NCBI GenBank assembly: GCA_003599455.1
Contig: QZKF01000076.1
Coordinates: forward strand, 7,802-71,801
Reading direction: 5' to 3'
Length of the DNA: 64,000 bases
DNA from: Comamonadaceae bacterium
GTDB lineage: Bacteria; Pseudomonadota; Gammaproteobacteria; Burkholderiales; Burkholderiaceae_C
Part shown: positions 49,505 to 64,000 of the stretch, one piece after another
Numbering within the stretch: position 1 is the stretch's first letter
How the letters are laid out: each line of letters starts with the position of its first letter
The notes under the pieces: model-generated
Seen by the model: the letters and a program-made list of their open reading frames with translations, nothing else
Databases searched by the model: none
Told to the model about the DNA's origin: nothing
Made by a program: the position numbers and the translations under genes

Positions 49505-50202
49505 GCCGGAGCCTCCGCGCCGTGGCGCCACCAGGCCACCGCCGCGCCAGTCAGGCCGGCCGCGACGATGGTCCATCCGCTGGGCGCCACGGCGTTGGCG
49601 ACCAGGGCCACACCGAGTGCCGCGCCGGCCGGCCACAGGTCGGCGCGGGACTTGAACAGGCCGACCGCCATCGCCGCGCAGAACGCGGTCAGCAGGAAGT
49701 CGAGTGCGAGCAGCTTGGGATGGGCCATCCAGCCACCGGCCACCGACCCCAGCAGCGTGCCGCCGACCCAGGGCAGGAACATGGCCAGGCCCGAACCCAG
49801 CACATAGGCCGCGTCGTGTTCGCCATCGGCGTGCGCCTTCATCGACAGCACCCAGTTGCCGTCGCCCAGGAAGTACAGGCTCGAATAGGCGTTGCCCACC
49901 GAGGCCTGGCCTAGCCAGGGCCGCAGCGCGGCGCCATACAGCATGTAGCGCGCGTTGAGCATCAGGACGGTGACGACGCCGGCCAGCACCGTCGCGCCCG
50001 GGCTCAGCGTGCCCACCGTGGCCACCTGGGCCGAGCCCGAATACACCAGCGCGCTCATGAGCATGGCCTCCAGCACGGACAGGCCCGCGTCGCTGGCCAG
50101 CAGGCCAAAGGTGACGGCGTAGGCAAACACGCCGATCGCCAGCGGCTGCGCCTGGGCATAGCCGCGGCGGAAACCGGCGGCGGTGAAGGTGGTTTCAGGC
50201 AT
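49501..50202 (-). CDS. azlC: AzlC family branched-chain amino acid exporter permease
   Basis: FGLLA..G, MSALVYSGSAQ, LNARYMLYG, D.NW. Confidence 0.88.
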   Translation of the reverse strand: MPETTFTAAGFRRGYAQAQPLAIGVFAYAVTFGLLASDAGLSVLEAMLMSALVYSGSAQVATVGTLSPGATVLAGVVTVLMLNARYMLYGAALRPWLGQASVGNAYSSLYFLGDGNWVLSMKAHADGEHDAAYVLGSGLAMFLPWVGGTLLGSVAGGWMAHPKLLALDFLLTAFCAAMAVGLFKSRADLWPAGAALGVALVANAVAPSGWTIVAAGLTGAAVAWWRHGAEAPA

Positions 50203-51109
50203 GGGAAGGCGCGGGTTGCTGTTCACCCGACAGCATATCGATCAACCAGGATGCGCCCGGGTCGTCGGTGACGGACCGGCTCATCGCGATCTGGTGGCGA
50301 AAGGGCTCCAGCGCGAACGGCACGTCCCGCGTGCCCAGGGGCACGTCCTGGTGGCGCGCGACGAGGTCCCGGGGAACCGTCAAGATCAAGTCCGTGGACT
50401 GAAGCAGGCGCACCGCCGCCTCGAAATGGGCCGCCACGAGCCGGATGTTGCGCTCATGTCCCATCCGGCCGATCGTCTGATCGATCACGCCGAAGGAGCC
50501 CGACTGCACAAGCACCTGCAGGTGCTCTGCAGCCAGGTACCGTTCCAGCGTGAGCCCGCGCTTGAAAGCCGGATGGGCGGAACGCGCCACGCACACATAG
50601 GGCACCTCCCTCAGGGTTTTCACCGCGACGGCATCGTCGGCGCTGTTGAACACACCCAGCGCCAGGTCCAGCGCCCCGGAGCGGATCATGTCGGCCGCGT
50701 GGGTCCGCCCCACGTGCGTGAGCTGAATGCGCACCTGTGGCGCTGTGGCCAGGATGCGGCCGAGCACAGGTTCCAGAATGGCCACGGCCGCGTGATCCGA
50801 GCAACCGATCTGAAAGTGCCGCGTCGATCGCACCGGATCGAACGAGCTGGACATGGCGAACACCCGTTGCGCCCGCACCAGGATGGCCCGCACCTCGTGC
50901 TGCAATGCCAGGGCCTTGGGCGTGGGCACCATGGCGCGTCCCTGCCGCACCACGATGTCGTCGCCACACGCCTGACGAAGGCGCGCCAGCGCATGGCTCA
51001 CGGCAGGCTGCGTCAGCGCCAGGCGATCCGCCGCGCGCGACACACTGCGTTCGCCCAGAACGGCATCGAACACCACCAGCAGGTTGAGGTCGAGTCGGCG
51101 CAAATCCAT
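50195..51109 (-). CDS. LysR family regulator (NodD/DntR/LeuO-like)
   Basis: LDLNLLVVFDAV..ERSVSRAADRL.LTQPAVSHALARLR; stop overlaps the azlC start by 8 nt. Confidence 0.92.
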   Translation of the reverse strand: MDLRRLDLNLLVVFDAVLGERSVSRAADRLALTQPAVSHALARLRQACGDDIVVRQGRAMVPTPKALALQHEVRAILVRAQRVFAMSSSFDPVRSTRHFQIGCSDHAAVAILEPVLGRILATAPQVRIQLTHVGRTHAADMIRSGALDLALGVFNSADDAVAVKTLREVPYVCVARSAHPAFKRGLTLERYLAAEHLQVLVQSGSFGVIDQTIGRMGHERNIRLVAAHFEAAVRLLQSTDLILTVPRDLVARHQDVPLGTRDVPFALEPFRHQIAMSRSVTDDPGASWLIDMLSGEQQPAPSHA

Positions 51110-51118
51110 GAATCCATT

Positions 51119-51133
51119 ATGCATGGCATGCAT
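51119..51133. promoter_or_regulatory. LysR-type T-N11-A dyad (ATGCAT-GGC-ATGCAT)
   Basis: Dyad just upstream of the LysR start, in the divergent LysR/Bug intergenic region. Confidence 0.55.
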
Positions 51134-51259
51134 TCATAGGCATGGACAAGTGTCATTGGACCTTGCTCACCGAACTGCCTACATTGGCGAAGCCCCTCGA
51201 GATCTTTTATTCAATGCCTGCATGGGCCGCAGACAACAACCGATTGGAGACACGTCACC

Positions 51260-52282
51260 ATGTTCCCCTGCACCCCTCGTCGAACGCAGCCGACACCCGG
51301 AAACGCACGCGGGTTCGCCGCCTTCCTCTGCGCCGCCGCTGCCCTGTTGTGCGCGCTGCCTGGCGGTCGCGCGCAGGCCGCCGACTGGCCCGATCGCCCC
51401 ATCCGCATCGTGGTGCCGTTCGGCGCGGGCGGCAGCACCGATGCGCTCGCGCGCATCCTGGGCGAGAAGCTCGGTGCGTCCACCGGGCAAGCCGTCGTGA
51501 TTGAGAACCGCGCGGGTGCCGCAGGGGCCATCGGCGCGCAGGCGGTGGCCAAGGCCGCTCCCGATGGCAGCACCTTCCTGCTGGCCACAAGCAGCACGCA
51601 TGCGGTGCTGCCACACCTGCGGCCGCTGCCCTACGACGCCACGAAAGACTTCACCGCGATCGCGCGCATCGCCTCCGCCCCGAACGTGCTCATGGTCAGC
51701 CCGATGCTCAAGGTCGCCACGGTGAAGGATCTCGTCCAGCTGGCCAGCACCCGCGAAGGCGGCCTCGCGCATTCGTCCAGCGGGAACGGCACCGTCACGC
51801 ACCTCATCGCCGCCGACTTCGCGCAGCGCGCAGGCATCCGCGTGCGGCACATTCCCTACAAGACGGGCATCCAGGCGCTGCCCGAACTGAGCAACGGGCA
51901 GGTCGACTTTGCCTTCGACAGCATCGTCTGGGCGCTGCCCCAGGCGCAGGCCGGCAAGGTCAAGGCACTGGCCATCGGCAGCCCCGAGCGCTCGCCGCTC
52001 GCACCCGATCTCCCCACCCTGCGTGAAGCGGGTTTCACAGGCTTCGACGGCACGACCTGGTTCGCGTTGATGGGGCCGGCCGGACTGAGCCCGCGGATCG
52101 TGTCAGAACTCAATCGCCACGTGAACGCGGCGCTGCGCGACCCCGACCTGCGCGCCCAGTTTGAACGCCAGGGTGCCGAAGCGCTGGGCGGCACACCGCA
52201 GGACCTCGAGAAGCTCGTGCGGGATGACGGCAAGCGATGGGCCAACGTCATCGCCACGGGCGGCATCAAGATCGATCAGTGA
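51260..52282 (+). CDS. Bug/TctC tripartite tricarboxylate transporter substrate-binding protein
   Basis: WPDRPIRIVVPFGAGGSTD.LAR, ENRAGAAG.IG, SSGNGT, IPYK, TWFAL.GPAGL. Confidence 0.92.
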   Translation: MFPCTPRRTQPTPGNARGFAAFLCAAAALLCALPGGRAQAADWPDRPIRIVVPFGAGGSTDALARILGEKLGASTGQAVVIENRAGAAGAIGAQAVAKAAPDGSTFLLATSSTHAVLPHLRPLPYDATKDFTAIARIASAPNVLMVSPMLKVATVKDLVQLASTREGGLAHSSSGNGTVTHLIAADFAQRAGIRVRHIPYKTGIQALPELSNGQVDFAFDSIVWALPQAQAGKVKALAIGSPERSPLAPDLPTLREAGFTGFDGTTWFALMGPAGLSPRIVSELNRHVNAALRDPDLRAQFERQGAEALGGTPQDLEKLVRDDGKRWANVIATGGIKIDQ

Positions 52283-52305
52283 ACAGCACGCACGCACCCC
52301 ACACC

Positions 52306-53184
52306 ATGACCACCACAACCGATTCCCCCACCCTCCCCCACTTTCGCGATCTGGTCGCGAGCGAACGTCCCCTGGTTCTTCCCGGGGCGCACGATGCGAT
52401 CTCGGCCCTGCTGATCCAGCAGGCCGGCTTCAAGGCGTACTTCATTGGCGGCTTTCCCCTCGTCGGCGCGCGTTTCGGCCTGCCCGACATCGGGCTGGCC
52501 ACGCTGGGGGAAATCAGTGCCGGCGTGCGCGACATCCTCGCGGTGTCCGACCTGCCGGTGCTGGTGGATGTCGACAACGGCTACGGCGATGTCAAGAATG
52601 TCGTGCATGCGGTGCACACCTACGAAAAGATGGGCGCCCAGGCCCTGTTCTTCGAAGACCAGGTGTCACCGAAGCGCTGCGGCCACATCGCGGGCAAGGA
52701 ACTTCTGTCGTGCGAGGAGATGGAGCGCCGCATCCGGGCGGCCGCCGAACAGCGACGCGATCCGCGCACCTTCATCATTGCCCGCACCGATGCCCGCGAG
52801 GTGTATGGCATGGACGAGGCCCTGCGGCGCGGCGAGCGTTACGCCCGGGCCGGGGCCGACGGCCTGTTCATCGAAGCCCCCGAGTCGGTGGAAGAGCTCG
52901 AACTCATCGGCCGTACGCTGGCCGGCGTGCCCTTGATGGCCAACATGCTCGAAGGTGGCCGCACGCCCATCCTGCGCCCGCGGGAGCTGGAAGACCTCGG
53001 TTTTCGCATCGTCATCTACGGCATCTCGCTCCTGATGCGCAGCGTGCGCGTCATGCAGGACAGCCTCGCCGACATCCGCAGCGGCGAACTCAAGCTGGTC
53101 GGCACCGGTGTCGGCTTCGAGGAATACAAGACGATCGTCGGCTTCGAGCGCTGGTCCGGGATCGAGTCGCGGTATGGCGGGTAG
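52306..53184 (+). CDS. Isocitrate lyase/PEP mutase superfamily enzyme (PrpB/2,3-dimethylmalate-lyase-like)
   Basis: PGAHDAISA, GLPDIG, DVDNGYG, FEDQVSPKRCGH with catalytic Cys, IARTDA, NMLEGGRTP. Confidence 0.88.
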   Translation: MTTTTDSPTLPHFRDLVASERPLVLPGAHDAISALLIQQAGFKAYFIGGFPLVGARFGLPDIGLATLGEISAGVRDILAVSDLPVLVDVDNGYGDVKNVVHAVHTYEKMGAQALFFEDQVSPKRCGHIAGKELLSCEEMERRIRAAAEQRRDPRTFIIARTDAREVYGMDEALRRGERYARAGADGLFIEAPESVEELELIGRTLAGVPLMANMLEGGRTPILRPRELEDLGFRIVIYGISLLMRSVRVMQDSLADIRSGELKLVGTGVGFEEYKTIVGFERWSGIESRYGG

Positions 53185-53250
53185 CAGCGGGGAACGCCCG
53201 TTTCAATGGGGCCTCTGAACGGCACCCCGCCGCCAACGGAGGCCCTGCCC

Positions 53251-54006
53251 TCAGTGCATGACCGATCCACCGTCCACCACCACGGTCTGCCCCGTCATGA
53301 AATCGCTGCCAGGTGCCAGAAGAAAGACCAGCGCGCCGGTCAGGTCCTCGGGGGTCTGGTCCCGTCGCAAACACCGGCTGGCCACGGTGGCCTGTCCATC
53401 CTTCACCCAATTGGCCTGTTCCATCACGCCTTCGCTCATGGTGAAGCCCGGAGCGAGGCAGTTGGCACGGATGCCGGCCGGTCCCAGTTCCCGCGCGAGG
53501 CAGCGGGTCATGGCGACCACGGCGCCTTTCGACGTCACGTAGGACAGCATCATCACCTGGCCCTTGAAGACCGTTCCCGAGGCGATGTTGACGATCTTGC
53601 CGTAGCCCTGGCGGCGCATCACCGGAATGACGGCCTTCGCGCATTCGAAGGCGCCACGCACGTTGACGGCCATCACGCGGTCGAAGTCGGTCGACTCGAT
53701 CTCCTCGACCGACCGCTTGGGCAGCGTGGCGAACAGCGCGGCGTTATTGACCAGACCGTGAACGCCGCCGAACGCCTCATCCGCCTGCGCCACGAAGCGC
53801 GCCACGGCGTGGCCATCGGTCACGTCGCAGATGCCGCCAAGGGCCTCGCCGCCCATCGCCCGGATGCGGGCCACGGTCTGTTCGGGGGATCGCACGTCGC
53901 ATACCGCGACCCTGGCGCCCTGTTCGGCGAGCGCCAGCGCGAAGCTGGCGCCTATGCCTTGCGCCGCGCCGGTGATGATGATGCTGCGGCCTTCCAGTTG
54001 TTTCAT
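53251..54006 (-). CDS. Short-chain dehydrogenase/reductase
   Basis: TGAAQGIG, NNAA, NIAS, YVTSKGA. Alternative start at 54021. Confidence 0.92.
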   Translation of the reverse strand: MKQLEGRSIIITGAAQGIGASFALALAEQGARVAVCDVRSPEQTVARIRAMGGEALGGICDVTDGHAVARFVAQADEAFGGVHGLVNNAALFATLPKRSVEEIESTDFDRVMAVNVRGAFECAKAVIPVMRRQGYGKIVNIASGTVFKGQVMMLSYVTSKGAVVAMTRCLARELGPAGIRANCLAPGFTMSEGVMEQANWVKDGQATVASRCLRRDQTPEDLTGALVFLLAPGSDFMTGQTVVVDGGSVMH

Positions 54007-54029
54007 GTCGGTGTTCTCCATCGGTCGGT

Positions 54030-55478
54030 TCAGGGGTTCAGCACGGTCAAGGTCTGGGACTGCTGGTATTCGCGCATGCCTTCGATGCCGGCCCGGCGGC
54101 CACCACCGCTCTGCTTGACGCCGCCATACGTGGCCTTGCGGTTGACGGCGTTGGTGCCGTGGGCGTTGACGAACACCGTGCCGGCCTGCAGCCGCCAGGC
54201 CACCGAGGCGGCTTCTTCCGTGTTGCCGCCCCACACCGAAGCGCCCAGGCCGAAGCTCGTGTCGTTGGCGCGCGCCACAGCGTCGTCCAGTTCGCGGTAG
54301 CGCAGCACCGGTATGGCTGGGCAGAACTGCTCCTCCACCACCAGCCGTGCGTGGTCGTCCAGTCCGGTGACGAGGGTGGGCCGCAGGAAGTGCCCTCGCT
54401 CGAAGGTGGCCGGGTCGTCGACCTGTCCCAGCGTCTGGATGCGGGCGCCGCGCTGGCGCGCGTCCTCCAGGATGGCCTGCGCGCGCAGCAGCGCGGCACG
54501 GGTGTGCAGCGGCCCCATGGTGACGGCGGGCTTGAGGCCGTCGCCGACCACGCAGCGGTCCAGCGCCGCGGCAAACCGCCGCACGAAGTCGTCGTGCAGC
54601 GATTCGGGCACGTAGATGCGCTTGATCGCCATGCAGACCTGGCCCGTCATGCGCAGCACGGTGGTGGCCATCTGCTGCAGCATGGCGTCGTCCAGGCGCG
54701 CATCGGGCAGCACGATGGCGGGGTCGTTGCCGCCCAGCTCCAGCGTCACGCTCGTGATGCCCGCTGCGGCGTTGCCGAGGATGGTGCGCGCCGAGCTTGC
54801 GCCGCCGGTGAAGCCGATCTTGCTGACCAGCGGATGGCGGGTGAGCGCGTCGCCGATGTCCGCCGGCAGGCCGGTCACGGCGTTGAGCACACCGGGCGGC
54901 AGCACGCGGGCCAGCAGGCCGACGGCCTGCAGCAGCGCCAGCGGGCAGGTTTCGGGCGCCTTCACCACCACCGTGTTGCCCGCCAGCAGCGCCGGGATGA
55001 TCTGCATGCTGGCCAGCGACACCGGCGCGTTCCACGGCACGATGGACACCACCACGCCATATGGCCGCCAGCGCACCTCGGTGAACCCGTTGGCCGAGGG
55101 CAGGCGCTGCGTGGCCTCCAGCTCGGCGGTCAGCTCCAGCGTGAGCCGGGCCCGCGTCGCCACGTCGCCCAGCTCGCGCCGCGCTTCCGCCAGCGTCTTG
55201 CCGTTCTCACGCACGAACAATGTGGCGCGGGCGTCGAGATCGGTGCCGAGCTGGTCCAGCGCCTGGTCGATGAGCTGCGCGCGGCGCAGGAAGCCGAGGC
55301 GTTCCCAGGCGCCCTGCGCGGCGGCGGCGGCCTGCACCGCGTGGTCCATGTCCTGCGCGGTGCCGAGCACGATGCTGCCCACCACCTCGTCGGGCCGTGC
55401 CGGGTTGCGCACCTCCTGGCGGCGCTTGCCGTCCACGCGTGCGCCGTCGATCAGCATGCCGGCGTCGAATCGTTCCAT
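54030..55478 (-). CDS. NAD(P)-dependent aldehyde dehydrogenase
   Basis: PWNAP, FTGG, LELGGNDP, GQVC, EEQFCP, YGGVKQSG. Confidence 0.92.
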   Translation of the reverse strand: MERFDAGMLIDGARVDGKRRQEVRNPARPDEVVGSIVLGTAQDMDHAVQAAAAAQGAWERLGFLRRAQLIDQALDQLGTDLDARATLFVRENGKTLAEARRELGDVATRARLTLELTAELEATQRLPSANGFTEVRWRPYGVVVSIVPWNAPVSLASMQIIPALLAGNTVVVKAPETCPLALLQAVGLLARVLPPGVLNAVTGLPADIGDALTRHPLVSKIGFTGGASSARTILGNAAAGITSVTLELGGNDPAIVLPDARLDDAMLQQMATTVLRMTGQVCMAIKRIYVPESLHDDFVRRFAAALDRCVVGDGLKPAVTMGPLHTRAALLRAQAILEDARQRGARIQTLGQVDDPATFERGHFLRPTLVTGLDDHARLVVEEQFCPAIPVLRYRELDDAVARANDTSFGLGASVWGGNTEEAASVAWRLQAGTVFVNAHGTNAVNRKATYGGVKQSGGGRRAGIEGMREYQQSQTLTVLNP

Positions 55479-55494: not shown

Positions 55495-56955
55495 TCAGAG
55501 CGTGATGTTGATGTTCTTGGGCTGCGTGTAGAACATCAGCTCCTCGATCGATTCGTCGCGCCCGAGACCCGACTGCTTGTAGCCGCCGAAACCCGTGCCC
55601 AGGAAATGGCTGCTCGAGTTGTTGACCCAGACCAGGCCTGCTTCGATGCGGCTCGCGGCGCGGTGGGCGATGGCCAGGTCGCGCGTGAACACCGCGCCGG
55701 TCAGCCCGTACTCCACCGAATTGACCTGCTCGAACATGGTTTCCTCATCGGACCACTTGATGACCGACAGCACCGGGCCGAAGATTTCCTCGCGGGCAAT
55801 GCGCATGTCGGCGCGCACGTTGGTGAACACGGTGGGCTCGATGAAGTAGCCCTTCTGCAGCGCGGGGTCGCTCGGGCGCTTGCCGCCACAGGCGAGGGCG
55901 GCGCCCTCGCTCAGGCCGATGTCGATGTAGCGCAGCACCTTGTCCATTTGCGCTTTTGACACGATCGCACCCTGCGTGGTGGCCGGGTCGGTCGGAATGC
56001 CGGGCTTGTACGCCTGGATCTTCTTCAGCACCCCCGCCATCACCTCGTCGTGCACCGACTCGTGCACGAACAGGCGCGAGGTGGAGCCGCACGACTGGCC
56101 GTTCCAGGTGAAGTTCATGCCCTTGACGGCACCGCTGCTCGCGCGGTCGAGGTCGGCATCGGGGTAGATGATCAGCGCGTTCTTGCCACCGAGTTCCAGC
56201 GACACGCGCTTGATGCGGTCGGCCGCCGCGCGCATCACGGCACGGCCGGTTTCCACGCTGCCCACCAGGCCGATCACCGGCACGTCGGGATGCGCCGACA
56301 GTGCCGCGCCGCAGGGCGTGCCGCCGGTCACCACGTTGAACACGCCCGGGGGCAGGATGCCTTCGATCAGCTCCAGGAAACGGTAGGCCGACATCGGTGC
56401 CTGCACCGGCGGCTTCATCACCACCGTGTTGCCCGCGGCCAGCGGCGCAGCGCTCTTGGCGCCCAGGAACAGCAGCGGATGGTTGTAGGCCACGATGCGG
56501 CCCACCACGCCGTAGGGTTCACGCACGATGAGGTTTACCATGCCGTCGCCCATGGGCACCGTCTCGCCCTTGGCTTCGGTGACCAGACCGGCGAAGAACT
56601 CGAAGGCGGCGGCGGCGAACTCCACGTCGCGCATCATTTCCGCCACGGGCGCGCCGCAGTTGGACGCGTCGAGCAGTGCCAGCTCCAGCGTGTTCGCGCG
56701 CAGCACGGCCGCGATCTTGCGCAGCATCGCGGCGCGCTCCAGTGGCTTGGTCTTCTTCCACGTGACGAAGGCCTTCTTCGCCGCCTGCACCGCGGCATCG
56801 ACATCCTCCGCATTGGCCTCCGCGCAGGGACCCAGTGACTCGCCGTTGGCGGGGTTGTAGGTGTCGGTGTAGCCGCCCCGCGGCTTGTGCCAGGTTCCGC
56901 CGTAGTAGAGGTCGCGTTGGGTGGGGATGCGAACTTGCTGAACTGCGCTGCTCAT
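55495..56955 (-). CDS. Aldehyde dehydrogenase, PhdK (2-carboxybenzaldehyde dehydrogenase)-like subfamily
   Basis: AYNHPL, LELGGKN, MNFTWNGQSCGSTSRLFVHES, EEIFGP. ALDH is certain; the subfamily is recalled from motifs. Confidence 0.85.
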   Translation of the reverse strand: MSSAVQQVRIPTQRDLYYGGTWHKPRGGYTDTYNPANGESLGPCAEANAEDVDAAVQAAKKAFVTWKKTKPLERAAMLRKIAAVLRANTLELALLDASNCGAPVAEMMRDVEFAAAAFEFFAGLVTEAKGETVPMGDGMVNLIVREPYGVVGRIVAYNHPLLFLGAKSAAPLAAGNTVVMKPPVQAPMSAYRFLELIEGILPPGVFNVVTGGTPCGAALSAHPDVPVIGLVGSVETGRAVMRAAADRIKRVSLELGGKNALIIYPDADLDRASSGAVKGMNFTWNGQSCGSTSRLFVHESVHDEVMAGVLKKIQAYKPGIPTDPATTQGAIVSKAQMDKVLRYIDIGLSEGAALACGGKRPSDPALQKGYFIEPTVFTNVRADMRIAREEIFGPVLSVIKWSDEETMFEQVNSVEYGLTGAVFTRDLAIAHRAASRIEAGLVWVNNSSSHFLGTGFGGYKQSGLGRDESIEELMFYTQPKNINITL

Positions 56956-57108
56956 GTGATGTGCTCCATTCCATGTGTTGGGAAGGGCGCGATCGTAGGA
57001 AGCAGCGGGGTCTTTCGTCCAATGGATGTTGCGAATGTTGCCCATGGACGTGGTGGTTTCGTGTTGCTGGCACCCGCGCCTAAGCTGCGGCCCCACAGGA
57101 GAACCACC

Positions 57109-57900
57109 ATGGACATCAGCCACAACACCATCCTCATCACCGGCGGCGGCTCCGGCATCGGGCGCGCGCTGGCCGAGGCCTTCCACGCCGAGGGCAACCA
57201 GGTCATCATCTCGGGCCGGCGCCGCGAGATGCTGCAGCAGACCATCGAGGCCAACCCGGGCATGGCCGCCATCGAGCTCGACATCCGGGACGCGGCCGAC
57301 ATCCGGCGCGTCGCGCAACAGCTCAGACAGTCGCATCCGGCGCTGAATGCGGTGATCCACAACGCCGGCATCATGCGCACGGAGAACGTGCAGGAGCCGG
57401 ACACGACCGACGCGGAAGACATCGTCACCACCAACCTGCTGGGGCCCATTCGCCTGACAGCGGCCTTGCTGCCACAGATGCTGCAGCAACCCGCCGCGAC
57501 CATCATGACCGTGTCATCGGGCCTGGCTTTCCTGCCCGGCGCCATCACGCCCACCTATTGCGCCACCAAGGCGGCGATCCACTCGTACTCGCAGTCGCTG
57601 CGCTACCAGTTGCGCGACACCCCGGTGCGCGTCATGGAACTGGTGCCACCGTACGTGCAGACCGAGCTGACCGGTCCCGCGCACGCCAGCGATCCCAACG
57701 CCATGCCGCTGAAGGCCTTCATCGACGAGGTGATGGCGATCATCAGGGCCACGCCCGACGCGCACGAGATCTGCGTGGAACGCGTCAAGCCGCTGCGCAA
57801 CGCGGCCGCCGGCGGTGACTACGAGGCGTTCTTCAAGCGCTTCAACGACGCGCGCTCGGGTGCGGCCGCCGCGCAGTGGAAAGGCCAACCGGCACGCTGA
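57109..57900 (+). CDS. SDR oxidoreductase (DltE-like)
   Basis: ILITGGGSGIG, NAGI, SSGLAF, YCATKAA, ELVPPYVQT; AGGAG RBS. Confidence 0.9.
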   Translation: MDISHNTILITGGGSGIGRALAEAFHAEGNQVIISGRRREMLQQTIEANPGMAAIELDIRDAADIRRVAQQLRQSHPALNAVIHNAGIMRTENVQEPDTTDAEDIVTTNLLGPIRLTAALLPQMLQQPAATIMTVSSGLAFLPGAITPTYCATKAAIHSYSQSLRYQLRDTPVRVMELVPPYVQTELTGPAHASDPNAMPLKAFIDEVMAIIRATPDAHEICVERVKPLRNAAAGGDYEAFFKRFNDARSGAAAAQWKGQPAR

Positions 57901-57918
57901 GCCGGACGGCCAGCCAGG

Positions 57919-58875
57919 TCAATCATGCGGCAAGGTACGGCGCTCGCTGGGACGCATCGCCCGCTCGGCATAGCTGCTGGCGAAGATGCGGCGGAACCAG
58001 ATGTTGGCGGGGTCGCGATGCACCTGGTCGTGCCACTGCATGTTGAGGTCGATCGGCGGCAGCTCGAACGGGAGCGGCACGATGCGCACCGCCGCCATTT
58101 CGGTCATGGCACGCGCCAGGGCGCTCGGCGCCGTCAGGATCAGGTCCGTGCGGGCCACCGTGAGCGCCAGGCCGCTGAAGTAGGGAACGGACAGCGCGAT
58201 GCGGCGGCGCACGGAGCCGCCTTCGAACTGGGCGTCCAGCAGCTTGTCGAGCGATGCATGGATCGAAGCGGGCGGGCGGTAGCTCAGGTGCGCGGATTCC
58301 AGGTACTGCGACTGGGTCAGCGTGTCCCCGATGGTGGCGTGCCTGGCGCTGACGATGCACGTCCAGTGCTCCTGATCGAGCGACTGCCGGTGGTAGTCCG
58401 GCCCCAGTTCCGGGATGAAGCCCACGGCCAGGTCGAGTTCACCAGCGGCCAGTGCCTCCTTGGCGTTGCGCAGGGGCAGCGAGAGGTTCACCAGGTCCAC
58501 ATGGGGGGCGCGCTCGCGCAGCAGGCGCATGAAGTCGGGAATGAGCGTGACCTGCGCGATGTCGCTCACGAGGATGCGGAACGTGTGCTGCGACGTGGCG
58601 GGATCGAACACGCGGCTGCCTTCGAGCACGCGCTGGATGCGCTCGAGCACGTTGCTGATCTCGTCGCCCATGTTCATGGCCAGCGCCGTCGGCTGCATGC
58701 CTGCGGGTGTGCGCACGAAGAGCGGGTCACCGAAGGCCTCGCGCAGGCGCTGCAACGCATTGCTGGTGGCCGACTGGGTGAGGCCTATCCGTTCGCCAGC
58801 GAGTGTCACGCTGCGCGTGCGCATCAAGGCGTCGAACGTCAGCAGCAGGTTGAGATCGAGCTGGTGGGGCTTCAC
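57919..58875 (-). CDS. LysR family regulator (NahR/DntR-like)
   Basis: LDLNLLLTFDAL..RSVT.A..IGLTQSATSNAL.RLR..FGDPLFVRT..GMQPT; GTG start. Confidence 0.92.
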   Translation of the reverse strand: MKPHQLDLNLLLTFDALMRTRSVTLAGERIGLTQSATSNALQRLREAFGDPLFVRTPAGMQPTALAMNMGDEISNVLERIQRVLEGSRVFDPATSQHTFRILVSDIAQVTLIPDFMRLLRERAPHVDLVNLSLPLRNAKEALAAGELDLAVGFIPELGPDYHRQSLDQEHWTCIVSARHATIGDTLTQSQYLESAHLSYRPPASIHASLDKLLDAQFEGGSVRRRIALSVPYFSGLALTVARTDLILTAPSALARAMTEMAAVRIVPLPFELPPIDLNMQWHDQVHRDPANIWFRRIFASSYAERAMRPSERRTLPHD

Positions 58876-58970
58876 GTGGTCTCCGGGAGGTGTCGGCGAA
58901 GGATACCCGGGGCGTGTGCTTCGCGAAAGGCGTCAATTCGGCGGAAATTCTCACCGGCTGCGACACGCCT

Positions 58971-58999
58971 TTGACGCTGGATCAACCCCCTTCCATAGT
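58971..58999 (+). promoter_or_regulatory. Putative sigma70 promoter of the ring-cleavage operon, with dyad TTGA-N7-TCAA over the -35
   Basis: -35 TTGACG at 58971, 17 bp spacer, -10 CATAGT at 58994; dyad at 58971-58985. Confidence 0.55.
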
Positions 59000-59026
59000 T
59001 CGCGACCAGATCAAAGAGGAGACCGC

Positions 59027-59869
59027 ATGGCCACGCTTTCAGCGGCACTTCAGTGCCTGCACATCACATCACCACAACCGGCGCGCCTGGCCGAGTTCTA
59101 CGCGACGACCTACGGCATGACTTCCACCGAACAGGGCGGCGTGTGGCGCTGCACGGCACCCGAGCGCGAGGTGGCGTTCTCCGCCGGTCCCGTCAACCAG
59201 CTGCGCTGCGCGCTGTTCCGTTTCGAAACCGTCGCGGCCTGGGCGGCCTTCCAGCGGCGCGTGTCTGCGCTGGAGAAGGTGGCGCTGCCGGCGGACTGCG
59301 GCCTGGCGGCGGATGCGCTGGCCGTGCGCGACCCCGACGGCAACCTGATCGCTTTCGAGAGGCCCGCTGCGGCGGTCGATGACGGAGGCATGCGCGCTTC
59401 CAGTGCCGGACTGCCCGCGCAGCTGCAGCATTTCGCGTTTCGCACGCAGCAGATTGCCCGCATGCTGGCGTTTTACGAGGACCTGCTGGGCTTCGTGGTG
59501 TCCGACAAGGTGGTCGATGCCGACGGCGGTCTGCGCGCCTGCTTCCTGCGCGTGAACACGCTGCACCACGCGCTGGCCCTGTTCAACGCGCCCGTCACCT
59601 GCTACGACCACCAGTCCTTCGAAGCCCCCGACTGGGCGCGCCTGCAGCAATGGGCGGACCGCATGGGCTCACTCAAGACCCCCATCGTCTGGGGCGTGGG
59701 CCGCCACGGCCCGGGCAACGATGTCTTTTTCATGGTGCGCGACCCCGACGGCAACCTGGCGGAGATCTCCTCGGAGATCGAGGCCTGCGCCGAAGACCGG
59801 CCGGCCGGTCAATGGCCCCACGAGGAGCGCACGCTCAATCTCTGGGGCCAGGCCATCATGCGCAGCTGA
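59027..59869 (+). CDS. VOC-family (type I) extradiol ring-cleavage dioxygenase-like protein
   Basis: LQHFAF, LHHALAL, WGVGRHGPGND.F..RDPDGN..E: His/His/Glu metal-ligand pattern; GAGGAG RBS. Confidence 0.8.
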   Translation: MATLSAALQCLHITSPQPARLAEFYATTYGMTSTEQGGVWRCTAPEREVAFSAGPVNQLRCALFRFETVAAWAAFQRRVSALEKVALPADCGLAADALAVRDPDGNLIAFERPAAAVDDGGMRASSAGLPAQLQHFAFRTQQIARMLAFYEDLLGFVVSDKVVDADGGLRACFLRVNTLHHALALFNAPVTCYDHQSFEAPDWARLQQWADRMGSLKTPIVWGVGRHGPGNDVFFMVRDPDGNLAEISSEIEACAEDRPAGQWPHEERTLNLWGQAIMRS

Positions 59870-59878
59870 GGCACGGCG

Positions 59879-60664
59879 ATGACCGTTTCGCGCACGCTCC
59901 AGGTCCTCGGCATGTTCACGGTCGAACGGCCTGTGCTGTCGATCGACTGGCTGGTCGGGCGGCTGCAGGTCTCGCGCGCCAGCGTGTACCGCGATGTCCA
60001 GGAACTGGTGCAGGCGGGTTTGCTCGAGAAGGTCGACGCGCGCGGCTACGCCCTGGGTGCGCGCATCGTCGAGCTGGACCGGCAGATTCGCCTGGGTGAC
60101 CCGCTGCTGCATGCCGCGGGTCCCTTGCCCCAGCAGCTGGCGCGCGAGTCGGGCGGCACGGTGCTGCTGTGCCGCCTGCACGCACGCACCGTGTTGTGCA
60201 TCCTGGAAGTGACCGGGTCCGCGCCCGGTCTCACGGTGAGCTACGAGCGCGGCCGCGCCATGCCGCTGTACCGCGGCGCCACCTCCAAGATCCTGCTGGC
60301 TCACCTGCCCGTCTCCCGGCTGAGGCAGTTGCTCGAGGTGGACGCCGACGCGCTGGTCGATGCCGGCCTTCCACAGACCCTGCCCGGGCTGCAGCAGGCG
60401 CTCGCGCCCTTGCGCGCGCAGGGCCACGTGATCACGCGCGGCGAGGTCGACGCCCATGCGGTGGGGCTTGCGGCCCCGCTGCTGGACAGCGCCCGCCTGC
60501 TGGGCAGTCTGAGCGTGGTGCTGCCCGCCGCCCGCTTCACGCCCGCGACCGAGCGGCGCGTGCTGCCCCTGCTCAAGAGTTGCGCGCGCCGCATCGAGGC
60601 GCGCCTCGAAAACGACCGCCGCAGGGGCCAGACCCTGCGCACCCTTCACGCCCCATCGACATGA
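59879..60664 (+). CDS. IclR family regulator
   Basis: N-terminal HTH (RASVYR..QELVQAGLL), Y.LG, LYRGATSK.LLA, GLAAP..GSLSV. Confidence 0.9.
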   Translation: MTVSRTLQVLGMFTVERPVLSIDWLVGRLQVSRASVYRDVQELVQAGLLEKVDARGYALGARIVELDRQIRLGDPLLHAAGPLPQQLARESGGTVLLCRLHARTVLCILEVTGSAPGLTVSYERGRAMPLYRGATSKILLAHLPVSRLRQLLEVDADALVDAGLPQTLPGLQQALAPLRAQGHVITRGEVDAHAVGLAAPLLDSARLLGSLSVVLPAARFTPATERRVLPLLKSCARRIEARLENDRRRGQTLRTLHAPST

Positions 60665-62319
60665 AATCCCATCCCGTTGCCATCGTGGGCGCCGGCCCGA
60701 CCGGCCTGGTGCTCGCCAACCTGCTGGCCTGCCAGGGCATTCCCGTGCTGCTGCTCGAGCGCGGCGCCTCCACCGTCGACGAAGCGCGCGCCGTCACCAT
60801 CGACGACGAGAGCCTGCGCACCATCCAGGCCACTGGCCTCATCGAGGCCGTGCTCGCCCATGTCGTGCAGGGCTATGGCGTGCACTACTACTCGTGGCGC
60901 AACCGGCTGTTCGCGCGCATCGAGCCCACCTCCACCGAATACGGCTATGCCAAGCGCAACGCGTTTCGCCAGCAGGTGCTGGTGCGCGACCTGCTGGCCG
61001 GCCTCGCGCGCTTCGCGCACGTGGAGGTGTGCTTCCTGCACACGCTGCAGTCCTTCGAGTCGTGCGCCGACGGCGTGCGGCTGCAGGTCGAGACCCCGCA
61101 GGGCCGGCGCGAGTTCCAGTGCGACTGGCTGGTGGCCTGCGACGGCGGCCGCAGCCCGATCCGCGAGCAGCTCGGCCATGTGCTGCAGGGCAGCTCCTAC
61201 GACGAGAAGTGGCTGATCGCCGACCTGCTGGGCCGCACGTCACCGTTTCGCCATACGCGCACCTACTGCGACCCGGTGCGCCCGGCCATCCGCCTGCCCG
61301 GTCCCCAGGGCACGGTGCGCTACGAGTTCATGCTGCACCCGGGCGAAGACCCCGAGGCCGTGCTGGACGAAGCCCAGCTGCGCTCCTGGATCCGTCACCG
61401 CGACGCGGCCGATGCCGAATTGCCGATCGCGCGCAAGGTGGTTTACGCCTTCCACGCGCGGGTCGCGGATCGCTGGCGCGCCGGGCGCGTGTTTCTCGCC
61501 GGCGATGCCGCACACCTGACACCGCCGTTTGCCGGCCAGGGCATGAACAGCGGCATCCGCGATGCGGCGAACCTCGCGTGGAAGCTCGCCGGCGTGGTGT
61601 GTGGCGAACTGCCCGAGGGCCTGCTCGACACCTACGAAATGGAGCGCAAGCCGCACGCGTGGTCGCTGATCCAGATGGCGCTGCGCATCGGCCGCTTCAT
61701 GCAGCCCAAGCAGGTGTGGACCGCCGCGCTGGCGCAAGGCGCGCTCAAGGTGATGAGTGTGCTGTTGCCGCCCGTGCGCGACTACGTGCTGCACCTCAAG
61801 TTCAAGCCGCAGCCGCGTTTTGCCGAAGGCTTCTTCTGCCGCGACGAGACATCCCGGGCGCTGGTGCCGCCTGGCCAGCTGCTGCCACAACCCCGGGTGG
61901 AGCTGGCGGGCGGTGAGCGCGTGCTGCTCGACGAGGTGCTGGGGCAGGGTTTCGCGGTGCTGCAACTGGCCGGCAAGCCTGTCCCGGCAACGCCGGTGCC
62001 CTTGCGGACCGTGCGTGTCGTGGTGGTGCGTCGTTCGGACGACTTCCTTCCCGAGCTGGCCGACGCGCACGCCGGGGCGACGCTGGTGCGCGACATCGAC
62101 GGCACCCTGGAAGCATTGCTCGCCAGCGCGGGTGCCAACGCCGTCGTGCTGCGACCCGACCGCTATGTGCTCGCCTACCTGCGCGAGGGCGTCGCGACGC
62201 GCTGGTCGGTGCAGGACCTGCTGGACCGGCTGGTCGCAGGCCGGTCCCCCGGGCGCCCCGACCCTGCCCTGGTGCCGTCTCCCACGTTCTCTTCCTCCCC
62301 ACTTGCACAAGAGCCATGA
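60661..62319 (+). CDS. FAD-dependent aromatic hydroxylase, MhpA (3-hydroxyphenylpropionate 2-hydroxylase)-like
   Basis: IVGAGPTG, RAVTIDDESLR, ACDGGRS, AGDAAHLTPPFAGQGMNSG.RDAANL.WKL, C-terminal RPDRY domain. Confidence 0.9.
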   Translation: MKSHPVAIVGAGPTGLVLANLLACQGIPVLLLERGASTVDEARAVTIDDESLRTIQATGLIEAVLAHVVQGYGVHYYSWRNRLFARIEPTSTEYGYAKRNAFRQQVLVRDLLAGLARFAHVEVCFLHTLQSFESCADGVRLQVETPQGRREFQCDWLVACDGGRSPIREQLGHVLQGSSYDEKWLIADLLGRTSPFRHTRTYCDPVRPAIRLPGPQGTVRYEFMLHPGEDPEAVLDEAQLRSWIRHRDAADAELPIARKVVYAFHARVADRWRAGRVFLAGDAAHLTPPFAGQGMNSGIRDAANLAWKLAGVVCGELPEGLLDTYEMERKPHAWSLIQMALRIGRFMQPKQVWTAALAQGALKVMSVLLPPVRDYVLHLKFKPQPRFAEGFFCRDETSRALVPPGQLLPQPRVELAGGERVLLDEVLGQGFAVLQLAGKPVPATPVPLRTVRVVVVRRSDDFLPELADAHAGATLVRDIDGTLEALLASAGANAVVLRPDRYVLAYLREGVATRWSVQDLLDRLVAGRSPGRPDPALVPSPTFSSSPLAQEP

Positions 62320-63167
62320 AGTTCATCTCCTACGCGCACCGCGGCATCCCCAGCTGGGGCCTCATCACCCCCACGGGCGTGATCCAGCTCGCCACGCCCG
62401 AAGTGCCTAGCCTGCGTCGCGCCATCGAAACCGGTCGCCTTGAAGCCATGGGCCAGGCCGCGCATGGCCGTGCCGACAGCACCCCGCTGGCCGACATCGA
62501 ATTCCTGCCGGTGATTCCCGACCCCGGAAAGATCGTCTGCGTGGGCCACAACTACGAAGAGCACCGCGTCGAGACCCAGCGCGACAAGACCGAGAACCCC
62601 TCGATCTTCCTGCGCGTGCCGGCCTCGCAGACCGGGCACCTTGCGCCGCTGCCGCTGCCACCCGAGTCCACGCAGCTCGACTACGAAGGCGAGATCGCCA
62701 TCGTGATCGGCAAGGCGGGGCGACGCATTGCACAGGTCGACGCGTGGCAACACATTGCCGGCTACAGCGCCTACAACGACGGATCGGTGCGTGACTGGCA
62801 GAAGCACAGCATGCAGTTCACACCGGGCAAGAACTTCAACCGCACCGGGGCCTTCGGCCCCTGGCTGGTGTTGCGCGGCGAGATCGCCGACGGGCAGGAG
62901 CTCACGCTGGAGACCCGGCTCAACGGCACCGTGATGCAGCACGCGACGACGGCGATGATGATCTTCCCGATCCCGCGCCTGATCGAATACGTCTCCACCT
63001 TCACCACGCTGGAGCCGGGCGATGTGATCGTGACCGGCACGCCCGGCGGTGTGGGCGCGCGGCGCCAGCCACCGGTGTGGATGAAGCCCGGCGACCGCGT
63101 GGAGATCGAGGTGTCGGGCATCGGCGTGCTCGTCAACACCGTGGCCGCAGAGGAGATGGGCGCGTGA
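62316..63167 (+). CDS. Fumarylacetoacetate hydrolase family protein
   Basis: KIVCVGHNY, LDYEGE, YNDGSVRDWQ, GKNF, PGDVIVTGTPGGVG. Confidence 0.92.
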   Translation: MKFISYAHRGIPSWGLITPTGVIQLATPEVPSLRRAIETGRLEAMGQAAHGRADSTPLADIEFLPVIPDPGKIVCVGHNYEEHRVETQRDKTENPSIFLRVPASQTGHLAPLPLPPESTQLDYEGEIAIVIGKAGRRIAQVDAWQHIAGYSAYNDGSVRDWQKHSMQFTPGKNFNRTGAFGPWLVLRGEIADGQELTLETRLNGTVMQHATTAMMIFPIPRLIEYVSTFTTLEPGDVIVTGTPGGVGARRQPPVWMKPGDRVEIEVSGIGVLVNTVAAEEMGA

Positions 63168-63895
63168 GCACCGCCCCCATGACCCGCGAGCAGGCCATCG
63201 ACGAGCTGGTGTGGGCCAACCGCATCCTGGTCAACGAGAACGTGCTCGATGGATTCGGCCACGTCAGCGTGCGCGACCCGGAACGGGCCGACCGCTTCCT
63301 GATCGCGCGCAGCATGGCGCCCGCGCTGGTGACGGCCGCCGACGTGCTCGGCTGCGACCTGGACGGCACGGTGCACGACGCACAAGGGCGTCGCACCTAC
63401 ATGGAGCGCTTCATCCACAGCGAGATCTACCGCGCCCGGCCCGACGTGCTGGCCGTGGTGCACAGTCATTCGCCGGCGCTCATTCCCTTCGGCGTCACGG
63501 GCGCACGGCTGCGGCCGATCTGCCACATGAGCAGCTTCCTCGGCTCGCTCACGCCGGTGTTCGAGATCCGCCTGAGCGGGGGCGAGAGCACCGACATGCT
63601 GGTGCGCAACGCCGCGCTGGGCCGTGCGCTGGCCGACACGCTCGGCCCGCACCCGGTGGCGCTGATGCGCGGCCACGGCGGCGTGGCGGTGGGTGTGTCG
63701 CTGCCGCAGGCGGTGTTCCGGGCCGTCTACACCGAAAGCAACGCGCGGCTGCAGGCCCAGGCCATGGCGCTGGGCGCGGTCGAGTACCTCAGCGCCGGTG
63801 AATCCGGGGCCGCGACCGAGACCAACAACGGCCAGCTCGATCGGCCCTGGCAGTTGTGGAAGCAGCGTCTGGTCGAAGCGGGTCGCGCACCCTGA
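63164..63895 (+). CDS. Class II aldolase-fold protein, probable (hetero)aromatic or ring-fission acid decarboxylase
   Basis: LDGFGHVSVRDP, ERFIHSEIY, HSHS, LMRGHG; GTGA overlap with the FAH gene. Confidence 0.82.
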   Translation: MSTAPMTREQAIDELVWANRILVNENVLDGFGHVSVRDPERADRFLIARSMAPALVTAADVLGCDLDGTVHDAQGRRTYMERFIHSEIYRARPDVLAVVHSHSPALIPFGVTGARLRPICHMSSFLGSLTPVFEIRLSGGESTDMLVRNAALGRALADTLGPHPVALMRGHGGVAVGVSLPQAVFRAVYTESNARLQAQAMALGAVEYLSAGESGAATETNNGQLDRPWQLWKQRLVEAGRAP

Positions 63896-63939
63896 AGCGT
63901 GCCCCTCATTTTTTCGTGTATTTCCAGGAGACAAGACCC

Positions 63940-64000
63940 ATGAGCGCCCCTTCCCCCCGAGTCCCGGTCATCGCGATCGAGGAACATTACTGGGACGACG
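63940..64000 (+). CDS. 5' end of an amidohydrolase-2 family (non-oxidative decarboxylase-like) gene, truncated by window end
   Basis: MSAPSPRVPVIAIEEHYWDD; the IA.EEH motif; AGGAG RBS. Only 20 codons visible. Confidence 0.65.
   Translation, partial: MSAPSPRVPVIAIEEHYWDD

Follow-up and report, generated by a model that had tools for sequence, protein, structure and literature searches.

A candidate VOC–IclR–FMO–FAH pathway for resorcinol-type aromatic acids, with two decarboxylase-type genes, in a Comamonadaceae bacterium

Which aromatic compounds does the gene cluster at the right-hand end of this DNA degrade, and at which stage do its two decarboxylase-type enzymes act? The stretch analysed (hereafter, the window) comprises 64,000 nucleotides of contig QZKF01000076.1 from a Comamonadaceae bacterium and ends inside an operon that encodes a two-domain VOC-family ring-cleavage dioxygenase (VOC), an IclR regulator (IclR), a group A flavin monooxygenase (FMO), an FAH-family enzyme (FAH), a class II aldolase-fold protein (AldII) and the beginning of an amidohydrolase (Table 1). 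An earlier interpretation of the letters alone (the sequence-only reading) saw here a pathway in which a 3-hydroxy aromatic acid is hydroxylated, cleaved and only then decarboxylated. With moderate confidence, we propose instead that the operon encodes a pathway with a funnel and a core, by which aromatic carboxylic acids bearing meta-hydroxyls (resorcinol-type) are degraded. The gene content, operon structure, homologies and synteny reported below are observations, from which every substrate and reaction named is predicted.

Operon structure and continuation past the window

The genes from VOC through AldII are a single translationally coupled operon starting at VOC, with the regulatory gene LysR2 transcribed divergently across an intergenic region of 151 bp. 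The VOC and IclR genes are separated by 9 nt, and the IclR/FMO, FMO/FAH and FAH/AldII pairs overlap by 4 nt each, while the amidohydrolase gene starts 44 nt past AldII behind a good ribosome-binding site (RBS). The sole sigma-70-like site within positions 56800–64000 ends 28 nt before the ATG of VOC, and no terminator-like site was found on the operon strand in the same interval.

As had been expected from the letters alone, the operon runs past the end of the window. The downstream sequence was read from contig L081, reached via a 99%-identical FMO (P0001), whose DNA is 98% identical to the window over the overlap. There, AldII is followed by a 322-aa Amidohydro_2 protein, two TctC proteins, a LysR regulator and a porin, and after these by an unrelated two-component system. 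It is this full-length copy that identifies the EEH-motif amidohydrolase named in the sequence-only reading, the window itself holding just 20 codons of it. The same layout was found in loci L083, L084 and L086, where the FMO is 88–89% identical, and in L087 (73%). Downstream, neither L081 nor these relatives encode an mhpC-type hydrolase, a hydratase or an aldolase, and MhpB/C- and MhpD/E/F-type genes are absent from the 7 kb downstream on L081 and L083. The amidohydrolase is the best-conserved protein of the cluster, with an identity of 98–99% in L083, L084 and L086, where that of VOC is just 80–81%, and of 76% in an acidobacterial locus (Edaphobacter, L078). Compared with the PDB, the two downstream TctC proteins scored alike against BugE and terephthalate-binding proteins, and no ligand was indicated. 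The nearest named homologues of the FMO (82%) and VOC (74%) came from Hydrogenophaga. The DNA probably belongs to a Hydrogenophaga-like member of the Comamonadaceae. A search of sequencing runs recovered the sequence in metagenomic DNA only, mainly from groundwater, and in no RNA runs.

The core cassette and the proposed pathway

The FMO was used to scan metagenome contigs, which gave 57 loci; all window proteins were mapped onto them and the neighbouring open reading frames were clustered. Neighbour counts refer to the 17 loci in which the FMO has flanks of 4 kb or more on each side. VOC-(IclR)-FMO-(TctC)-(FAH) is the unit that recurs: VOC was the commonest neighbour (11/17 loci), IclR was found in eight, FAH in seven and TctC in six, and an ALDH2-like gene (at least 55% identity) in four. 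AldII accompanied the FMO in 3 of the 17 and the amidohydrolase in 2. The synteny search called for by the sequence-only reading has recovered a recurrent core, VOC-(IclR)-FMO-(FAH). Since most VOC-FMO loci are devoid of both decarboxylases, these cannot be obligatory post-cleavage steps. Moreover, the lower meta-pathway genes are lacking in the window and downstream, and the idea of decarboxylation after ring cleavage is not supported. The absence of the decarboxylases from most cassettes argues for an optional add-on to a self-sufficient core, and most likely both are feeder steps.

The cassette occurs in Beta- and Alphaproteobacteria and in one Acidobacterium, accompanied by TTT, TRAP or MFS transporters. 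Variovorax paradoxus VAI-C has an alpha/beta hydrolase, VOC (49% identity to the window), FMO (55%), FAH (53%), an FAD oxidoreductase and a divergent LysR. On plasmid pANY103b of Aminobacter sp. SS-2016 the order is MFS, VOC (39%), FAH (46%), IclR (31%), FMO (43%), a hypothetical gene and a TRAP transporter. In an Edaphobacter metagenome-assembled genome (MAG) of the Acidobacteriota, the amidohydrolase (76%), AldII (56%), VOC, FAH, IclR and FMO stand together in a changed order between unrelated flanks; this co-occurrence of all six genes in another phylum argues that they work together. VOC and FAH genes are adjacent in L129, L078 and L149, and in the window they share one operon with IclR and FMO between them. 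Overall, these unnamed VOC-FAH-IclR-FMO cassettes consist of the same four families as in the window but differ in gene order and transporters (MFS or TRAP versus TTT) and mostly do without decarboxylases. Their database names are generic ("VOC family protein", "FAH family protein") or derived from MhpA ("3-(3-hydroxyphenyl)propionate hydroxylase").

In at least 12 distant loci, VOC-FMO or FMO is immediately preceded by a homologue (63–65% identity) of the aldehyde dehydrogenase (ALDH) ALDH2. The enzyme appears to be functionally linked to the cassette, as a candidate for the oxidation of an aromatic aldehyde to the acid or of a ring-fission semialdehyde; its PDB matches are betaine-aldehyde dehydrogenase-like and indicate no ligand. 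A subclade of the FMO with about 60% identity (L101, L102, L105, L107, L108 and L110) stands behind a thiamine diphosphate (ThDP) enzyme and an ALDH2-like gene, with TctC genes and an alpha/beta hydrolase nearby and no VOC. Benzoylformate decarboxylase together with benzaldehyde dehydrogenase is an arrangement typical of mandelate pathways, and the resemblance suggests that the FMO family takes aromatic carboxylic acids. This subclade may feed another ring-cleavage route.

Matches of VOC to solved structures are weak, the best being an uncharacterised Novosphingobium protein (1.7e-16), with homoprotocatechuate dioxygenases at about 1e-15, and its scores are far below the NCBIfam cutoffs for HpaD, catechol 2,3-dioxygenase and BphC. 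The family comprises at least 1,151 clusters at 90% identity, and the best 120 homologues are all generically named. In a tblastn search against plasmids, VOC matched a VOC protein of pBAM2 from Aminobacter sp. MSH1 with 37% identity over 275 aa (187 bits), and the FAH of pBAM2 shares 49% identity with that of the window along the full length. The two pBAM2 genes are adjacent and overlapping; they are bbdF and bbdG of the 2,6-dichlorobenzamide (BAM) pathway. BbdF, as Raes et al. are said to have described in 2019, is an extradiol dioxygenase that converts a trihydroxylated dechlorinated benzoate to 2,4,6-trioxoheptanedioate, and BbdG reportedly "likely" converts this product to Krebs-cycle intermediates. 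The IclR of the window is 32% identical to the IclR-like regulator divergent from bbdF and 34% to another pBAM2 IclR (L143:3759-4583), and has no match to E. coli MhpR. The window holds a BbdF/BbdG-type module with an IclR-type regulator.

The residues expected at the active sites are conserved. VOC H135, H195 and E246, the 2-His-1-carboxylate candidates, are present in at least 95% of 26 family members including BbdF, and FAH E124, E126 and D160 together with H83-x-x-E86 in at least 95% of a family alignment including BbdG. Such residues are metal ligands in both families, and the His/Glu pair is used by the hydrolase members of the FAH family. The best full-length NCBIfam match of the FAH, below the cutoff, was 2,4-didehydro-3-deoxy-L-rhamnonate hydrolase, which is a 2,4-diketo-acid hydrolase, and no similarity to MhpD-type hydratases/decarboxylases was detectable. 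It is proposed to be a BbdG-like C-C hydrolase of 2,4-diketo acids (beta-diketones).

When pBAM2 region L143:10372-13682 was compared with pANY103b region L149:8974-13197, BbdF showed 57% identity to the VOC, and BbdG 52% identity to the FAH, encoded by the Aminobacter sp. SS-2016 cassette. The bbdR2-bbdF-bbdG module looks like a natural VOC-FAH-IclR-FMO cassette minus the FMO, with Rieske oxygenase and dehalogenase steps in its place, which suggests that the last steps of the BAM pathway may have been recruited from such a cassette. The window and pBAM2 share the VOC and FAH pair with an IclR-like regulator and a carboxylate uptake system near both. However, the trihydroxylated ring presumably arises on the BAM route from a Rieske oxygenase and glutathione-dependent and hydrolytic dehalogenases, whereas the window would use an MhpA-like FMO; decarboxylases are absent from pBAM2, and uptake there is by TRAP rather than TTT.

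The FMO is MhpA-like, as claimed from the letters alone, with 36% identity to E. coli MhpA over the full length, but it is not an MhpA orthologue. It passes NCBIfam NF004831 (691 bits, cutoff 546), an uncharacterised sub-model, and fails the MhpA equivalog models NF004828 (398 versus 853) and NF004827 (379 versus 966) as well as NF004830. Its best match among solved structures had E=3.6e-38. The database homologues are uniformly named 3-(3-hydroxyphenyl)propionate hydroxylase or MhpA, an annotation that is probably wrong in this context. We propose that the enzyme is the ortho-hydroxylase that makes the ring-cleavage substrate; hydroxylation ortho to the hydroxyl of a 3-hydroxy aromatic acid, put forward in the sequence-only reading, is still the best guess for it. 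MhpA itself attacks C2, next to the 3-hydroxyl and the side chain, which is the position proposed here.

The favoured pathway would then run as follows. Two TctC proteins and the porin, encoded past the window, would import aromatic di- or polycarboxylates. AldII and the amidohydrolase would turn these into the substrate of the FMO by stripping off carboxyls that are ortho to a ring hydroxyl. The FMO would add a hydroxyl ortho to an existing one and yield a 1,2,4-trihydroxy aromatic, the best-guess reaction being 3,5-dihydroxybenzoate to 2,3,5-trihydroxybenzoate. VOC would cleave beside the diol, at the substituent-bearing carbon, to a linear 2,4,6-triketo acid such as 2,4,6-trioxoheptanedioate, and the FAH would hydrolyse the 1,3-diketone to pyruvate and a second small acid (oxaloacetate in the benzoate case). 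IclR and LysR2 would regulate the operon. Complete mineralisation of 3,5-dihydroxybenzoate by three enzymes would fit a core that has no further catabolic genes. Guesses for the feeder substrates are a 3,5-dihydroxyphthalate type for AldII, by analogy with its closest characterised relative, and a 2,6-dihydroxyterephthalate type or resorcylates for the amidohydrolase, likewise by analogy.

Several points weigh against this pathway. The joint retention of the two decarboxylases, also in Edaphobacter, is not accounted for, and the dihydroxyphthalate- and dihydroxyterephthalate-type feeder substrates are guesses by analogy. With an identity of just 37% between VOC and BbdF, the two may act on differently substituted rings; what is said here of BbdF and BbdG follows the account reportedly given by Raes et al. 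in 2019, in which the role of BbdG is said to be called likely. The FAH is absent from some VOC-IclR-FMO loci (L093, L128). Some AldII homologues are labelled by JGI as HCOMODA/2-hydroxy-3-carboxy-muconic semialdehyde decarboxylase, and both decarboxylase folds are known to act on the ring-fission product in 2,3-dihydroxybenzoate pathways (PMC6362003).

In its fullest form the proposal is more tentative: the FMO may be the 2-hydroxylase of 3-hydroxybenzoate-type acids (3,5-dihydroxybenzoate to 2,3,5-trihydroxybenzoate), VOC-IclR-FMO-FAH may be an undescribed three-enzyme route from alpha-resorcylate-type acids to pyruvate and oxaloacetate, and in this genome two new aromatic decarboxylases with dihydroxy-phthalate/-terephthalate-type acids as substrates may supply it. 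If the 3,5-dihydroxybenzoate assignment is true, the route, found widely among rhizobia, Acidobacteria and the Burkholderiales of fresh water and groundwater, would show that bbdR2FG of the BAM pathway was recruited from a natural cassette, and would correct thousands of MhpA annotations. The four-gene core is, in any case, common in environmental bacteria and mislabelled in databases. Its substrate assignment would fill a gap in the mineralisation of resorcinol-type plant, fungal and lichen phenolics or of oxidised phthalate-type pollutants, and may give genes to an orphan orcinol/resorcinol-type hydroxylase, a trihydroxy-aromatic extradiol dioxygenase and a triketo-acid hydrolase. AldII and the amidohydrolase are also candidate biocatalysts for reversible (de)carboxylation.

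The two decarboxylases and competing explanations

The closest solved relative of AldII is Mlr6791 of Mesorhizobium loti (PDB 2z7b; 44% over 232 aa, E=1e-60, 208 bits), with the HxH...H metal motif aligned; the identity to Arthrobacter keyseri PhtC is 31%. Mlr6791 is presumably the 3-hydroxy-2-methylpyridine-4,5-dicarboxylate (HMPDC) 4-decarboxylase, which removes the carboxyl ortho to the hydroxyl from an intact ring. The carboxyl lost to AldII would likewise have a hydroxyl in the ortho position, and a second carboxyl as its neighbour; AldII is proposed to be a feeder decarboxylase of ortho-hydroxy aromatic di- or polycarboxylates. Its synteny across 80 representative genomes was largely uninformative. 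Most homologues in Comamonadaceae MAGs (54–73%) form a TctC and AldII pair beside housekeeping genes such as tgt, queA and recG, with no other catabolic gene (L003, L005, L010, L020 and others). On plasmid pl4 of Sphingobium sp. AntQ-1 (L146:6490-11035), an AldII homologue (48%) lies with a flavin reductase, a cupin dioxygenase, an FAH and an LLM flavin oxidoreductase beside Tn3 remnants. The arrangement resembles a further funnel of the hydroxy-phthalate type, one that leads to gentisate-like cleavage, and next to a cupin dioxygenase and an FAH is where a feeder enzyme would be expected. The window has one more class II aldolase/adducin-family gene (8188–8958, plus strand), which is only 30% identical to AldII and has unrelated surroundings.

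Compared with gamma-resorcylate decarboxylase (2dvt), the full-length amidohydrolase of L081 has an identity of 43% (E=2.8e-65), and the EEH, HP and DWPF motifs of the two line up. LigW (6.5e-55) and 2,3-dihydroxybenzoate decarboxylase (1.4e-53) followed, versus 7e-21 for ACMSD. It therefore groups with the gamma-resorcylate, LigW, 2,3-dihydroxybenzoate and salicylate decarboxylases (E from 1e-65 to 1e-38) and belongs to the clade that holds the first three. The earlier assignment to an EEH class that includes 2,3-dihydroxybenzoate and gamma-resorcylate decarboxylases stands in this respect; the role after ring cleavage attached to it is not supported. Known gamma-resorcylate pathways (graF/tsdA) likewise combine such a decarboxylase with a flavin hydroxylase, there resorcinol hydroxylase, but continue with an intradiol hydroxyquinol dioxygenase and maleylacetate reductase, whereas the window has an MhpA-type FMO, VOC and FAH. 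Pfam families of intradiol hydroxyquinol 1,2-dioxygenase and maleylacetate reductase were found neither in the cluster nor downstream.

That the closest solved relative of the amidohydrolase is a gamma-resorcylate decarboxylase also leads to a different and rather doubtful explanation, in which the ring loses its last carboxyl before hydroxylation. Gamma- or beta-resorcylate or orsellinate would be decarboxylated to resorcinol or orcinol, which the FMO would convert to hydroxyquinol or 2,3,5-trihydroxytoluene; VOC would form 2,4,6-trioxohexanoate or -heptanoate, and the FAH, perhaps with an ALDH, would release pyruvate and acetate, formate or malonate semialdehyde. Two decarboxylases in series would explain their joint retention, and the resemblance of the FAH to a diketo-acid hydrolase agrees with these steps. 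In several loci VOC-FMO is preceded by an ALDH2-like gene, whose enzyme could oxidise the semialdehyde product, and a putative gamma-hydroxymuconic semialdehyde dehydrogenase is among the PDB relatives of ALDH2. If true, the operon would provide the genes behind the classical Pseudomonas putida orcinol/resorcinol meta pathway, which Chapman and Ribbons are said to have described in 1976. The enzymes for orcinol were characterised biochemically in the 1970s (orcinol hydroxylase, trihydroxytoluene dioxygenase, triketo-acid and acetylpyruvate hydrolases), and we know of no gene sequences for the pathway. The likeness to the operon lies in the proposed ortho-hydroxylation of a resorcinol, extradiol cleavage to a 2,4,6-triketo acid and beta-diketone hydrolysis to pyruvate, and the difference in substrates without a carboxylate. 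Against this explanation, the reported substrate of the homologous BbdF is a triol with a carboxyl group, TRAP/TTT uptake of the carboxylate type is found even with cassettes that have no decarboxylase, and the ThDP and ALDH context implies that the FMO acts on an aromatic acid. Moreover, no resorcinol or orcinol hydroxylase of this family was found in the literature searched.

The order of events suggested by the sequence-only reading is, by now, unlikely: 3-hydroxybenzoate hydroxylated to 2,3-dihydroxybenzoate, distal cleavage by a DhbA/CmtC-like VOC, decarboxylation by AldII or the amidohydrolase to 2-hydroxymuconic semialdehyde (HMS), and a lower meta pathway encoded elsewhere. It has precedents, since in Pseudomonas reinekei MT1 the 2,3-dihydroxybenzoate ring-fission product is decarboxylated by the class II aldolase-fold DhbB, and in strain PTH10 the same step is done by the amidohydrolase OpaD (PMC6362003). 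The JGI labels mentioned above and the two ALDHs nearby would also suit it. These 2,3-dihydroxybenzoate pathways share with the window a type I VOC dioxygenase and an aldolase- or amidohydrolase-fold decarboxylase, but they always carry a full lower meta pathway (PMC6362003), which the window does not. A further example is a complete, generically annotated dhb-type meta-cleavage cluster on the megaplasmid of the plant pathogen Ralstonia solanacearum (L150:6121-15290), in the order LysR, VOC, class II aldolase, HMS dehydrogenase, two MhpD-type FAHs (hydratase and 4-oxalocrotonate decarboxylase, 4-OD), 4-oxalocrotonate tautomerase (4-OT), acetaldehyde dehydrogenase, HOA aldolase and MFS. It served as a proxy for DhbA/DhbB and CmtC/CmtD, the authentic MT1 and F1 sequences being outside the comparison.

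Against this proxy, the VOC of the window scored 54 bits (31% over 189 aa) versus 187 bits against BbdF, and AldII 71 bits (33% to the DhbB-type protein) versus 208 bits against Mlr6791, while the FAH did not match the MhpD-like FAHs of the Ralstonia cluster at all. The suggested CmtC/CmtD or DhbA/DhbB pattern was thus not borne out. The window and the downstream sequence, the parts of the genome that were read, hold no HMS dehydrogenase or hydrolase, 4-OT, 4-OD, hydratase, aldolase or acetaldehyde dehydrogenase, and ALDH2 reached 375 bits on the HMS dehydrogenase model TIGR03216, whose cutoff is 693. Hence neither the dioxygenase and decarboxylase types (as judged from the proxy), nor a lower pathway, nor an obligatory coupling to decarboxylases corresponds to the dhb or cmt pathways; most VOC-FMO loci do without a decarboxylase, and the amidohydrolase groups with aromatic decarboxylases and not with ACMSD. 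A variant in which a 2,3-dihydroxybenzoate decarboxylase would deliver catechol was set aside as well, because VOC scored 63 bits versus a cutoff of 320 for catechol 2,3-dioxygenase and the lower pathway is missing.

The match of AldII to Mlr6791 also raises a heteroaromatic version, which we regard as improbable. Here the substrates would be hydroxypyridine mono- or dicarboxylates (vitamin B6-derived or hydroxylated pyridine-dicarboxylic acids), with AldII acting like HMPDC decarboxylase and the FMO and VOC acting on a hydroxynicotinate-type ring. Besides AldII, SDR1, one of two short-chain dehydrogenases/reductases (SDRs) near the operon, points to pyridine chemistry by a sub-threshold match to the SDR-type pyridoxal 4-dehydrogenase (192 bits versus a cutoff of 325). 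On the other hand, Pfam and NCBIfam found no small FMO of the MHPC-oxygenase type, alpha/beta-hydrolase-type amidohydrolase, lactonase or GMC oxidase in the cluster or downstream, there is no amidase or deformylase for a nitrogen-containing fission product, and the pBAM2 homologues of VOC and FAH reportedly act on a carbocyclic ring. Vitamin B6 pathway I in particular is represented by its HMPDC decarboxylase homologue and by none of its other enzymes: families matching MHPC oxygenase, AAMS amidohydrolase, pyridoxolactonase and the pyridoxate and FHMPC dehydrogenases were not found in the cluster or downstream. The vitamin B6 reading was consequently set aside, and the ring is here probably carbocyclic.

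Very improbable is a flavonoid or isoflavonoid A-ring pathway of the fde/ifc type, in which the FMO would hydroxylate a resorcinol-type A ring at C8 and VOC would cleave it. The chemical logic is the same and has been characterised in Comamonadaceae, with IfcA of Variovorax being an FAD monooxygenase and IfcB a glyoxalase-family dioxygenase (PMC11069340). However, IfcA forms its own clade of group A FMOs, and the fde/ifc clusters also hold cupins and an alpha/beta hydrolase, with no FAH or decarboxylase reported (PMC11069340). In the window, neither a cupin nor an alpha/beta hydrolase was found by Pfam and tblastn, and uptake is by TTT carboxylate binding proteins.

A genuine mhp/hpp-type pathway for 3-(3-hydroxyphenyl)propionate or 3-hydroxycinnamate would draw on the NF004831 match, the MhpA names of the homologues and the Rhodococcus hpp/ohp clusters, which pair an MhpA-like enzyme with a VOC dioxygenase, but it is scarcely credible given the 36% identity to MhpA and the failed equivalog models, the lack of any MhpB, C, D, E, F or R homologue in the window and of a hydrolase downstream, and the fact that FAH-type hydrolases act on 1,3-diketones, which the mhp ring-fission product is not. 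E. coli mhp and the cluster each have an IclR-type regulator and a group A flavin monooxygenase, the two monooxygenases belonging to one broad family; the cluster differs in lacking LigB-type MhpB, MhpC and MhpD/E/F and in a regulator unmatched to MhpR. Searched by tblastn for MhpB, C, D, E, F and R of E. coli, the 64 kb gave no match at E<=1e-5, and Pfam revealed no LigB-type dioxygenase or MhpC hydrolase among the other called genes of the window. On these points the sequence-only reading was right: both are missing from the window, and the cluster is uncharacterised and distinct from mhp.

The literature searched (orcinol hydroxylase genes, extradiol cleavage of hydroxyquinol, trihydroxybenzoate, hydroxyphthalate decarboxylases, resorcylate with FAH) gave no description of this cluster. 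Neither the enzyme families nor the general scheme of aromatic catabolism is new, and the nearest characterised relatives are BbdF and BbdG. The cassette is a pathway variant and not a new kind of biology.

Adjacent units and other content of the window

Genes were called from third-position GC and RBS context, in a window with a G+C content of about 70%, and assigned to families with Pfam and NCBIfam. Every gene listed in the sequence-only reading for the right-hand part was found to be present (Table 1). Its description as one block of about 14 kb needs correction, since at least four transcription units can be told apart. LysR1-TctC-ICL is missing in L083, L084 and L086, the 88–89% relatives that keep the rest, and an autotransporter and another SDR stand in its place. 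This absence indicates that the 14 kb consist of several units of which the left-most is likely unrelated; LysR1-TctC-ICL (50195–53184) is probably an adjacent separate unit outside the pathway. In comparison, SDR1-ALDH1-ALDH2, SDR2 and LysR2 remain beside the operon in L083–L087. SDR2 is kept in L081–L087, and the linkage of ALDH1 to the VOC operon is limited to the close relatives L083–L087. The products of the ALDH2-ALDH1-SDR1 operon and SDR2 probably oxidise side-chain (benzyl) alcohols and aldehydes to the same acids that would enter the favoured pathway.

Table 1. Genes and promoter candidate in the right-hand part of the window (positions in the 64,000-nucleotide stretch).
Feature	Position	Strand	Family assignment and remarks
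LysR1	50195-51133	-	Pfam
TctC/Bug	51260-52282	+	Pfam
ICL/PEP-mutase family	52306-53184	+	Pfam; prpB-like on NCBIfam, below cutoff
SDR1	53251-54021	-	adh_short_C2; NCBIfam matches all below cutoff; last gene of minus-strand operon
ALDH1	54030-55478	-	Aldedh; second ALDH of ALDH2-ALDH1-SDR1 operon
ALDH2	55495-56955	-	Aldedh; PDB and NCBIfam matches generic
SDR2	57109-57900	+	adh_short; no specific family; between ALDH operon and LysR2
LysR2	57919-58875	-	HTH_1 and LysR_substrate; divergent from VOC operon
Sigma-70-like promoter candidate TTGACG-17-CATAGT	58971-58999	+	Consensus match only, upstream of VOC gene
VOC, two-domain (type I extradiol-type) ring-cleavage dioxygenase	59027-59869	+	Pfam Glyoxalase; operon gene 1
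IclR regulator	59879-60664	+	Pfam IclR_C and HTH_IclR; inside operon
FMO, group A flavin monooxygenase	60661-62319	+	FAD_binding_3
FAH-family enzyme	62316-63167	+	FAA_hydrolase
AldII, class II aldolase-fold protein	63164-63895	+	Aldolase_II; GTG start 63164 taken from L081 gene call
Amidohydro_2 protein, first 20 codons	63940-64000	+	MSAPSPRVPVIAIEEHYWDD; cut by window end

Apart from this region, the window carries a puu-like cluster for gamma-glutamyl-polyamine utilisation (9766–26897), and the G+C content is lower (0.64–0.66) around 14–20 kb. Its genes encode two glutamine-synthetase-like proteins, an ALDH, an ABC transporter with a binding protein, a class III aminotransferase, a peptidase C26 amidotransferase-like hydrolase, a GntR-aminotransferase regulator and a DAO-type oxidase. 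The genes parA, rsmG (gidB) and mnmG (gidA) lie together at 2022–6507 on the minus strand, which points to an origin-proximal part of the chromosome. A copper-type P1B ATPase with a MerR-family regulator (33116–36352) and the cell-division genes minCDE (37406–39294) are ordinary.

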